Below are positions 20,743 to 22,497 of a DNA stretch of 32,000 nt, one piece after another (the stretch's first letter is position 1; the number at the start of each line of letters is the position of its first letter). Source of the stretch: Sulfolobus acidocaldarius DSM 639 (lineage in GTDB: Archaea > Thermoproteota > Thermoprotei_A > Sulfolobales > Sulfolobaceae); the NCBI RefSeq assembly GCF_000012285.1, contig NC_007181.1, positions 540,001 to 572,000 on the forward strand, read 5' to 3'. Made by a program: the position numbers and the translations under genes. Below the pieces are notes generated by a model that had not been told where the DNA came from, searched no databases, and was given only the letters and a program-made list of their open reading frames with translations.

Positions 20743-22497
20743 TTAGCTAGATGTAAAATTCTTATATGTTTTCTTATAAAGCTCTCCTTGCTCCAATGTA
20801 GTCGCTACTCTCTTGTACTTCATTGCATCTCCTATACTGTTCTCTCCGTGTGTCTTTACCCACTTATCCATTGGTATTTGATACTCTTTAAGTACTTTAT
20901 CCCTATATAAGTCATTTAGCACGTTATAAGTACAGAATGGAATTACTCTTCCGTCAGGTGCTACGTAGTGTATATCACATCTCATAACCCTTTCTATATC
21001 GTAGTCGTATAGATCCATGAAATGCATTGTTCCTAGGAATAATGTCCTATAGTGCCATTCTCCTAAAGCCTCATAATTATGATTTATTAGAATATTACGT
21101 AACATATCATATACATCGAAATCTCTGGGTCCTTTTTCCTTATCTATAAACTTCCTTAAACTATATAAAACTTTTATACCAATCCAGTACTTATTTCCTC
21201 CTTCTTTTAACTCCTCGGTTTTATCTCTCAAATACTCTAGTAGTCCCTCCAAATCTATAAATCTTGAAAGAGGAATGAAGTGAGGTTCTCCATTTCTCCA
21301 TTCTACGAAAACATAAGTACCTGCACCACATGCTGGATGGTTAGCCATCTCAAATTGTTCCTTACCTGTTATAGCTTCAATTAACTTAGAAAACACAACT
21401 GAAGTTCCGATCGGATACCAACTATCCTTAGTTACTTCTCCATTTGTCTGCTCTTCGATATTCTTTAATATTTCTGGTATTGTTATTCTAAATTTACTCC
21501 TCATATTTCTCTTCATCATTCCTGTTAAACTTACAGGCTGGAAATTGACCGCTCTAACTACATCCATGTTATACGCAGCAAACCTCACAATATTCCCTAA
21601 ATCATGATCATTCACAGTTTTAATCACGGTTGGAACTAAAACTACGCTAGTCATTCCTGCTTTTCTAAATGCCTCTAACGTATAGGGAATCTCCCAATGG
21701 TTCTTAGGATTTGTCTTTCTAGTGGTTCCATCAAAACTCATATAAATTGTGTTTACGCCAGCCTCTCTCAACTGTCTTGCGTACTTTATTGCATATTCAG
21801 GATCTTCTAAATACATCCTACCAAAAGTTCCTCCCCAACTATTAAGTTGTATATGCTTTACCCCATTCTCCCTCAAGATCCTAACTATTTCTATTATATC
21901 CTCTCTTAGAGTTGGCTCTCCTCCAGTAACTTGAATCACTAATGTAACGTCTTGCCTCTTAAGCTGATCCACCATGAACTTTATTTGCTCTAAAGTTGGC
22001 TCAAATACATATCCGGCTTTCTCAGCGTAGAAGAAGCAATACCAACACGACAAATCACATCTGTTGGTTATTACAAGATTTACTAAAGCAGAATGCTGAT
22101 GATGCATGGGGCATAATCCACAATTAAATGGACAAGGTGATTTGAGGTCAACATATGGAACTTTAGGACCTTTACCTTCATACTCCCAATAATCAAATTT
22201 GTAATATAGATCTTTATCACCATAATATAAGTCCTCAAATTCACCGTGCTCTGGACATATCTTCCTTATATATAGTTTATCCTCTCTCTCAAAAATTACA
22301 GCTGGTAATATTCTATAACATGCTGGGCATAAAGATGAAGTTACTCTAGTTAATTTCTCGTTATCACTAAGCTTTGGTAATGGTCCGCCTACTTTAATCT
22401 CTCTATCTCCGAACTTTACTACTCCTTTTTCAAATTTAGATGGTGCTGGGAGTAGTCTAAATCCATGAGATCCTGGCTCTTGTACAGTTTCAGTCAT
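20743..22497 (-). CDS. tes: Radical SAM enzyme of the tetraether lipid synthase family (Tes / GDGT-MAS)
   Basis: A 584-aa protein. It has an N-terminal CPAC...CPEH rubredoxin-like motif, an auxiliary [12 protein letters not shown] motif, the radical SAM motif [10 protein letters not shown], and the SAM-binding GGEPTL. The long C-terminal domain contains [16 protein letters not shown]. The architecture and gene position fit my recollection of the S. acidocaldarius Tes gene. Confidence 0.7.

Follow-up and report, generated by a model that had tools for sequence, protein, structure and literature searches.

The 32,000-nucleotide stretch of Sulfolobus acidocaldarius DSM 639 DNA analysed here (assembly GCF_000012285.1, contig NC_007181.1, positions 540,001 to 572,000 of the forward strand; hereafter the window, whose own numbering is used throughout) carries on its minus strand an ATG-initiated open reading frame (ORF) specifying a protein of 584 amino acids. 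It is bordered by a convergent metallo-β-lactamase (MBL)-like ORF and, on its own strand, by a gene for an AIRS-family thiamine-phosphate kinase (ThiL; Table 1). We are highly confident that this ORF is tes (saci_0703), an ortholog of Methanocaldococcus jannaschii GDGT-MAS/Tes (MJ0619), which makes glycerol dialkyl glycerol tetraether (GDGT) lipids.

Identity, family and fold of the tes product

A search with the 584-residue protein returned 4021 homologs at E≤1e-10, from which we conclude that the ORF is a real gene and not a chance reading frame; the best 120 matches all come from Thermoproteota. The S. acidocaldarius record AAY80083.1, named "tetraether lipid synthase Tes" by NCBI, is identical to the translated ORF, and the accessions of its neighbours run consecutively: AAY80081 (phosphoribosyltransferase), AAY80082 (MBL-like) and AAY80084 (ThiL). 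The saci_0703 primers given in Supplementary Table 3 of Zeng et al. 2022, of which only the gene-specific parts were mapped onto the window, fit the ORF at its ATG, at its stop codon and in its flanks; the ORF is thus saci_0703. One of them, P5R, differs as printed by one base from the window (GTAAATTC against GTAAAATTC), probably through an error of typing or text extraction. As designed, the deletion in that study spares the last 51 nt of saci_0703. The gene is not new: the Tes family was first proposed from saci_0703 (Zeng et al. 2022), and it is already published and annotated as Tes.

Gene identity and family membership, like the fold and the ligand conservation described below, are direct observations of this analysis. 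The protein scores 712.7 bits against the NCBIfam equivalog model NF045702 (rSAM_GDGT_ether, tetraether lipid synthase Tes; cutoff 450), in a match that spans residues 53-542 and profile positions 2-485 of 486. Its sole strong relative of solved structure is M. jannaschii GDGT-MAS (PDB 7TOL, chain 7tol_A; E=1.2e-135 over residues 43-551), and 216 of the 490 aligned residues (44%) are identical to MJ0619, whose sequence was reconstructed from the phmmer alignment to 7TOL. Pfam recognises a radical S-adenosylmethionine (SAM) core (PF04055, residues 142-307) and, N-terminal to it, the domain Zn_ribbon_HMPTM (PF23545, residues 51-92, E=9e-18). An AlphaFold2 (AF2) model built from 51 input sequences reached a predicted local distance difference test (pLDDT) score of 89.4 and a predicted template modelling (pTM) score of 0.90. 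Its best Foldseek matches in the PDB are 7TOM and 7TOL (E=3.6e-56); the 7TOM match has a template modelling (TM) score of 0.92, normalised to the target, over 524 columns. The next match, MoaA (4e-9), covers the radical SAM core only. The protein has four domains and belongs to the radical SAM enzymes, with three [4Fe-4S] clusters besides a single rubredoxin-like Fe site.

An earlier reading made from the letters of this DNA (the original prediction) had described a 584-residue minus-strand gene, placed it in the GDGT lipid synthase family and noted that its position, counted in genes from tuf, fits the S. acidocaldarius Tes locus. All of this holds. The frame has the predicted extent, the NF045702 score, the 7TOL alignment, the ligands and the fold agree on the family, the primers of Zeng et al. 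2022 fit the ORF ends, and the EF-1alpha gene (tuf) is present in the window at 3018..4325. Those of its proposed checks that can be made by computation all point the same way, with Tes and no other radical SAM subfamily as the top family, a strong alignment to MJ0619 and a predicted fold that follows 7TOM/7TOL along the whole chain. Its remark that context would leave the gene annotated as a generic radical SAM protein is outdated, since NCBI has an equivalog model and gives this exact protein the name Tes. Recognising tes from raw sequence was a correct call which adds nothing new.

Metal sites and a proposed mechanism

The ligand positions of Lloyd et al. 2022 were transferred through the MJ0619 alignment, and conservation was counted in an alignment of 133 sequences. 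In MJ0619 the rubredoxin Fe is bound by C9, C12, C33 and H36 (Lloyd et al. 2022, PMC9433317). These align one-to-one with C57, C60, C81 and H84 of the S. acidocaldarius protein, with the same C-x2-C-x20-C-x2-H spacing in both. At the N-terminal auxiliary site, C122, C126, C129 and H132 align with C73, C77, C80 and H83 of MJ0619, while C147, C151 and C154 of the SAM-cleaving cluster align with C98, C102 and C105. Each of these residues is invariant (133/133). The alignment and invariance of H132 suggest that it is a ligand of this N-terminal cluster, [4Fe-4S]N; the paper gives no number for the corresponding histidine. Also invariant are F155, Q320 and S323, equivalent to F106, Q268 and S271 of MJ0619, which contact 5'-deoxyadenosine (5'-dAH).

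Coordination of the C-terminal cluster has been described as three Cys and one Met (review). The only C-terminal cysteines that the S. acidocaldarius protein has in common with MJ0619 are C390, C507 and C522 (C338, C455 and C470 in MJ0619). M491 aligns with Met439 and Y511 with Tyr459, and all five residues are invariant (133/133 each). As the sole shared cysteines of this region, C390, C507 and C522 would account for the three-Cys-plus-Met coordination; their conservation points to them as the cluster ligands, the cysteines being unnumbered in the text of the papers.

The sites quoted in the original prediction are thus all in place: the CPACYRIL...CPEHG site (C57, C60, C81, H84), the C-x3-C-x2-C motif (C122, C126, C129, followed by H132) and the radical SAM motif (C147, C151, C154) with GGEPTL. 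The Cys pair that it had noted in the C-terminal extension (C507/C522) is present too, as part of a larger site to which C390 and M491 also belong. It had named a lack of conservation of the auxiliary ligands relative to GDGT-MAS as evidence against itself; all are kept in 133/133 sequences.

A mechanism for Saci_0703 can be carried over, by analogy, from the M. jannaschii enzyme; catalytic activity, native substrate head groups and the transcription unit of tes are likewise things we infer. SAM would be reductively cleaved at the radical SAM cluster (C147/C151/C154), and the resulting 5'-deoxyadenosyl radical would strip a hydrogen atom from a diether lipid, at the terminal methyl carbon of one of its saturated phytanyl chains. 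The carbon radical would then be stored by a sulfide of the C-terminal cluster through a C-S bond (putative cluster ligands C390/C507/C522, with M491 as the labile one). Cleavage of a second SAM would activate a second phytanyl terminus, and attack of this second radical on the sulfur-bound carbon would close the C(sp3)-C(sp3) bond. Each bond would cost two SAM and each GDGT four, with glycerol trialkyl glycerol tetraether (GTGT) as the intermediate, and the surface N-terminal Fe and [4Fe-4S] sites presumably pass electrons.

Genomic context and transcription of tes

On the minus strand thiL is upstream of tes and purB is the next gene further upstream, so that the order given in the original prediction, with tes upstream of the thiL-like gene, was the wrong way round. 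Its statement that tes converges on an MBL-like gene is borne out. The other convergent genes are those for a phosphoribosyltransferase, gatB and upp, and divergent genes beyond purB comprise two copies of purP, purA and a flavin adenine dinucleotide (FAD) oxidoreductase gene. The observation that nothing in the neighbourhood hints at a substrate holds for the window, where none of the listed neighbours is a lipid gene. The 192-residue MBL-like ORF, called 'MBL fold metallo-hydrolase' by NCBI, shares 4 nt with the phosphoribosyltransferase gene upstream of it and has no Pfam or NCBIfam match at the thresholds used. The position directly downstream of tes is occupied in some Sulfolobaceae by a RibD_C gene instead.

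The best explanation of the AIRS-family protein is that it is a true ThiL. ThiL models are its best matches, albeit under cutoff, its PDB matches favour ThiL (4e-23) over HypE (8e-9), and its NCBI name is thiamine-phosphate kinase. Annotations of its start disagree: the protein counts 309 residues in several strains but 294 in DSM 639 and SUSAZ.

The neighbourhood of tes was compared across 85 loci, with tallies of Pfam domains in the immediate neighbours covering 76. In 18/85 loci the same-strand gene immediately upstream of tes is an AIRS gene, and in five more a single gene intervenes, giving an AIRS / radical SAM / tes string; no AIRS gene is present in 53 loci with at least 1.2 kb of upstream DNA. 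The pair is kept in at least five different flanking contexts, with downstream genes as varied as RibD_C, MBL-like, DUF1512, Band_7, geranylgeranyl reductase (GGR) and genes of unknown type. It also occurs in Ignisphaera and Zestosphaera, whose AIRS proteins are only about 28% identical. The adjacency is patchily conserved and, since the unrelated neighbour RibD_C is kept downstream about as often (16/76) as AIRS upstream (17/76), it is weak evidence of a functional link.

There are two other recurrent neighbours. A radical SAM protein of about 575 aa was counted immediately upstream in 11/76 loci; proteins of this kind (~570-590 aa) lie in some loci between the AIRS gene and tes. They have weak, sub-cutoff matches to B12-binding radical SAM models, are called 'radical SAM protein' in the source records and could be GDGT-modifying enzymes of the ring synthase or methylase class. 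A GGR gene adjoins tes downstream in 12/76 Thermoproteota loci and is absent from the S. acidocaldarius window. Its presence next to tes in other lineages provides independent context support for a lipid role of the Tes family.

A TATA-like element preceded by GGAGAA or GGTGAA is kept in 7/7 Sulfolobaceae tes upstream regions. Judged by what is known of archaeal promoters, the element TTTATATA and the purine-rich sequence GGTGAAATAG ahead of it, which resembles a transcription factor B recognition element (BRE), form a putative promoter, and their conservation suggests that tes probably has its own. No oligo-T tract was seen in the 69-bp gap between thiL and tes, so that read-through from thiL is possible. 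Oligo-T tracts terminate archaeal transcription, and the 35-bp region between the convergent genes, with T runs on both strands, is likely to act as a bidirectional terminator. As our literature search brought up no usable mapping of transcription starts or operons in S. acidocaldarius, the operon question rests on sequence. The earlier description of tes as monocistronic is therefore supported in part, by the conserved TATA box and the oligo-T run after the stop codon, and weakened by the lack of such a run between thiL and tes.

Elsewhere in the window, the prephenate dehydratase gene (30623-31471, minus strand) has a frame that is open for 109 codons before the first ATG/GTG/TTG (the GTG at 31144), and this stretch includes the conserved N-terminal half of the protein. 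Public records give it 173 aa (GTG), 266 aa (ATT at 31423) or 278 aa (ATA at 31459); the annotation is ambiguous and the start probably non-canonical. A PALP-family ORF at 31467..31952 is only apparently truncated, its frame running off the window edge. The two purP genes, for formate-dependent 5-formamidoimidazole-4-carboxamide ribonucleotide (FAICAR) synthase, are tandem, overlapping paralogs (25047-26048 and 26045-27094, plus strand), the first scoring above its NCBIfam cutoff (645.8 vs 570) and the second under every cutoff (best 344.4 vs 556). A 170-residue ORF (5031-5543, plus strand), which lies between the S7 and S12 genes but in the opposite orientation, has a marginal bifunctional-nuclease match (E=3e-6), and a 297-residue ORF (470-1363, minus strand) has no Pfam match.

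Table 1. Features of tes and its surroundings (window positions, except for rows headed by a locus of the comparative set, which use the numbering of that locus)
Feature	Position	Strand	Remarks
tes (saci_0703) coding sequence, 584 aa + stop	20743..22497	-	ATG-initiated, from the open reading frame listing
N-terminal extension, aa 1-50	22348..22497	-	absent from MJ0619, which aligns from residue ~46 on
Rubredoxin-like mononuclear Fe domain, aa 51-92	22222..22347	-	PF23545; C57, C60, C81, H84
N-terminal auxiliary [4Fe-4S] site, C122-x3-C126-x2-C129 + H132	22102..22134	-	MJ0619 alignment
Radical SAM core, aa 142-307	21577..22074	-	PF04055, E=5e-25
SAM-cleaving cluster motif C147-x3-C151-x2-C154 (CDLSCWYC)	22036-22059	-	
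GGEPTL, aa 192-197	21907-21924	-	
C-terminal auxiliary-cluster and lipid-pocket domain, aa ~340-551	20845..21480	-	
C390	21328-21330	-	candidate C-terminal cluster ligand
M491, labile	21025-21027	-	candidate C-terminal cluster ligand
C507	20977-20979	-	candidate C-terminal cluster ligand
Y511, conserved	20965-20967	-	
C522	20932-20934	-	candidate C-terminal cluster ligand
C-terminal tail, aa 552-584	20746..20844	-	past the MJ0619 alignment; invariant K560, R563, Y574, Y578
TATA box, putative tes promoter	22530-22537	-	3' end 32 nt before ATG
BRE-like element, purine-rich	22538-22547	-	ahead of TATA box
Convergent intergenic region, 35 bp	20708..20742		T6 run on minus strand (20720-20725), T5 run on plus strand
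MBL-like ORF, 192 aa	20129..20707	+	converges on tes, 35-bp gap
AIRS-family thiamine-phosphate kinase (ThiL, AAY80084.1)	22567..23496	-	upstream same-strand neighbour of tes
Primer P5F	22477-22497		starts at ATG of tes
Primer P5R	20743-20761		ends at stop codon of tes; one base different as printed
Primer Z034R	22498-22517		abuts tes start codon
Primer Z035F	20774-20793		
Primer Z034F	23068-23097		
AIRS gene directly upstream of tes	L003, L004, L006-L010, L021, L022, L025, L026, L028, L029, L071, L075, L085		
Radical SAM protein (~570-590 aa) upstream of tes	L012:2775-4523, L013:1716-3464, L014:3180-4898, L023:3129-4874, L027:3066-4787, L031:2867-4582, L038:3107-4822, L050:3102-4874	+	
Geranylgeranyl reductase (GGR_cat) directly downstream of tes	L025:6816-8165, L028:6798-8180, L073:6846-8207	-	
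Geranylgeranyl reductase (GGR_cat) directly downstream of tes	L060:6738-7895	+	

Function, rival explanations and known systems

The function of Saci_0703 is ascribed by analogy with its orthologs. MJ0619 yields GDGT in vitro and in E. coli, Maeo_0574 and MA_1486 yield GDGT in Methanococcus maripaludis (Zeng et al. 2022), and deletion of tes in Thermococcus kodakarensis abolishes GDGTs (review). saci_0703 itself is highly expressed in an organism whose major lipids are GDGTs, resisted attempts at deletion, and was singled out as the strongest candidate among the 18 radical SAM proteins detected in the genome (Zeng et al. 2022). In the later literature that we searched, no paper tests the function of a Tes from Sulfolobales directly; those papers give expression data only or deal with MJ0619. 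The step matters as it joins two diether lipids of a bilayer tail to tail, yielding the membrane-spanning GDGT lipids of which thermoacidophiles build monolayers; the same lipids underlie GDGT-based palaeotemperature proxies.

Several observations weigh against assigning GDGT synthesis to Saci_0703. No GDGT was formed when saci_0703 was expressed in M. maripaludis; Zeng et al. 2022 put this down to the mismatch between a crenarchaeal protein from a thermophile and a euryarchaeal host that is a mesophile. The original prediction had named absence of GDGT on heterologous expression as evidence against itself; such a result has been in print once, with this plausible trivial explanation. The failed deletion of saci_0703 is evidence of essentiality of a negative kind only (Zeng et al. 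2022). There is no lipid-pathway neighbour among the genes in the window. Finally, R210 of MJ0619 aligns with N263 (N in 132/133) and R275 with the variable M327, both with indels near the position; Lloyd et al. 2022 list these arginines, like F106, Q268 and S271, among the residues around 5'-dAH and the active-site lid, a set that was not put forward as family-defining.

These points invite the alternative that Saci_0703 is a Tes-family enzyme which does not make GDGT alone, being either a variant with another product or dependent on a lineage-specific partner or head group. Besides the null result of saci_0703 and the mere traces of macrocyclic archaeol obtained with Methanosarcina acetivorans MA_1114 (Zeng et al. 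2022), this idea can draw on the N-terminal beta unit, the C-terminal tail and the NPKNHWE segment of the Thermoproteota proteins, all absent from MJ0619, and on the recurrence of a ThiL-like gene upstream of tes. However, the score lies far above the equivalog cutoff, all catalytic ligands are kept, S. acidocaldarius membranes are dominated by GDGT with saci_0703 as the leading candidate of 18, and the choice of a mesophilic host for a thermophilic protein offers a trivial explanation for the absence of GDGT. We therefore regard this alternative as improbable. The related proposal that Thermoproteota Tes needs its lineage-specific N-terminal beta unit and C-terminal tail, and perhaps the ThiL-like AIRS protein, is unlikely also, if a little less so. 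Were it true, Tes would not be self-sufficient, and the absence of GDGT from saci_0703 alone in a heterologous host would be explained.

Far less credible is the original annotation of MJ0619 as a class D radical SAM methylase with a pterin as its substrate, 7,8-dihydro-6-hydroxymethylpterin dimethyltransferase (HMPTM). The name survives in that of the Pfam domain Zn_ribbon_HMPTM and in the UniRef name of one homolog ('7,8-dihydro-6-hydroxymethylpte...'). Lloyd et al., however, failed to reproduce the methylase activity, and the structure has a long hydrophobic tunnel with bound lipids, unsuited to a pterin; the annotation was withdrawn on these structural and biochemical grounds. Membership of a neighbouring radical SAM family, either TrsS (NF045646, a radical SAM selenoprotein-system enzyme), the runner-up NCBIfam match at 302.5 bits, or the glycerol monoalkyl glycerol tetraether (GMGT) synthase Gms, which performs a related C-C coupling of lipid tails (review), is excluded by family scores and domain content, as the TrsS score falls under its cutoff of 490 and spans residues 53-364 only, while Saci_0703 has a rubredoxin-like domain that Gms lacks and S. 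acidocaldarius makes no GMGT.

The Tes assignment thus retained, the closest known system is GDGT-MAS of M. jannaschii (MJ0619; 7TOL, 7TOM; Lloyd et al. 2022), with which Saci_0703 shares the same four-domain fold and identical ligand sets for the rubredoxin Fe and the N-terminal, radical SAM and C-terminal clusters ([4Fe-4S]N, [4Fe-4S]RS and [4Fe-4S]C), Met439 and Tyr459 included. In contrast to MJ0619, the Sulfolobus protein is longer by about 45 residues at the N terminus and by a tail of about 30 at the C terminus, and has an insertion at about residues 221-234; the invariant NPKNHWE (residues 263-269) starts with N263 where MJ0619 has R210, and M327 replaces R275. Residues ~20-36 of the N-terminal extension are predicted as three beta-strands (AF2 pLDDT 93-95 for residues 21-40), positions 28-56 are occupied in at least 98% of Thermoproteota homologs, and the tail is predicted by AF2 to form two short helices (565-578). 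The beta unit, the tail and NPKNHWE are common to Thermoproteota Tes. MJ0619 is of proven activity, whereas that of Saci_0703 would follow from its orthologs.

MA_1486 of M. acetivorans and Maeo_0574 of Methanococcus aeolicus belong to the same family and were found with Saci_0703 as the query. Each suffices for the formation of GDGT, GTGT and macrocyclic archaeol in M. maripaludis, where saci_0703 is inactive (Zeng et al. 2022). MA_1486 adjoins ferredoxin and GGR genes, whereas saci_0703 lies among purine, thiamine and translation genes. More distantly, TrsS has the radical SAM core and an N-terminal region in common with Tes and gives no match to the Tes C-terminal domain. Gms shares the radical SAM core and a proposed, similar auxiliary-cluster-assisted C-C coupling, and differs from Saci_0703 in having no rubredoxin domain (review).

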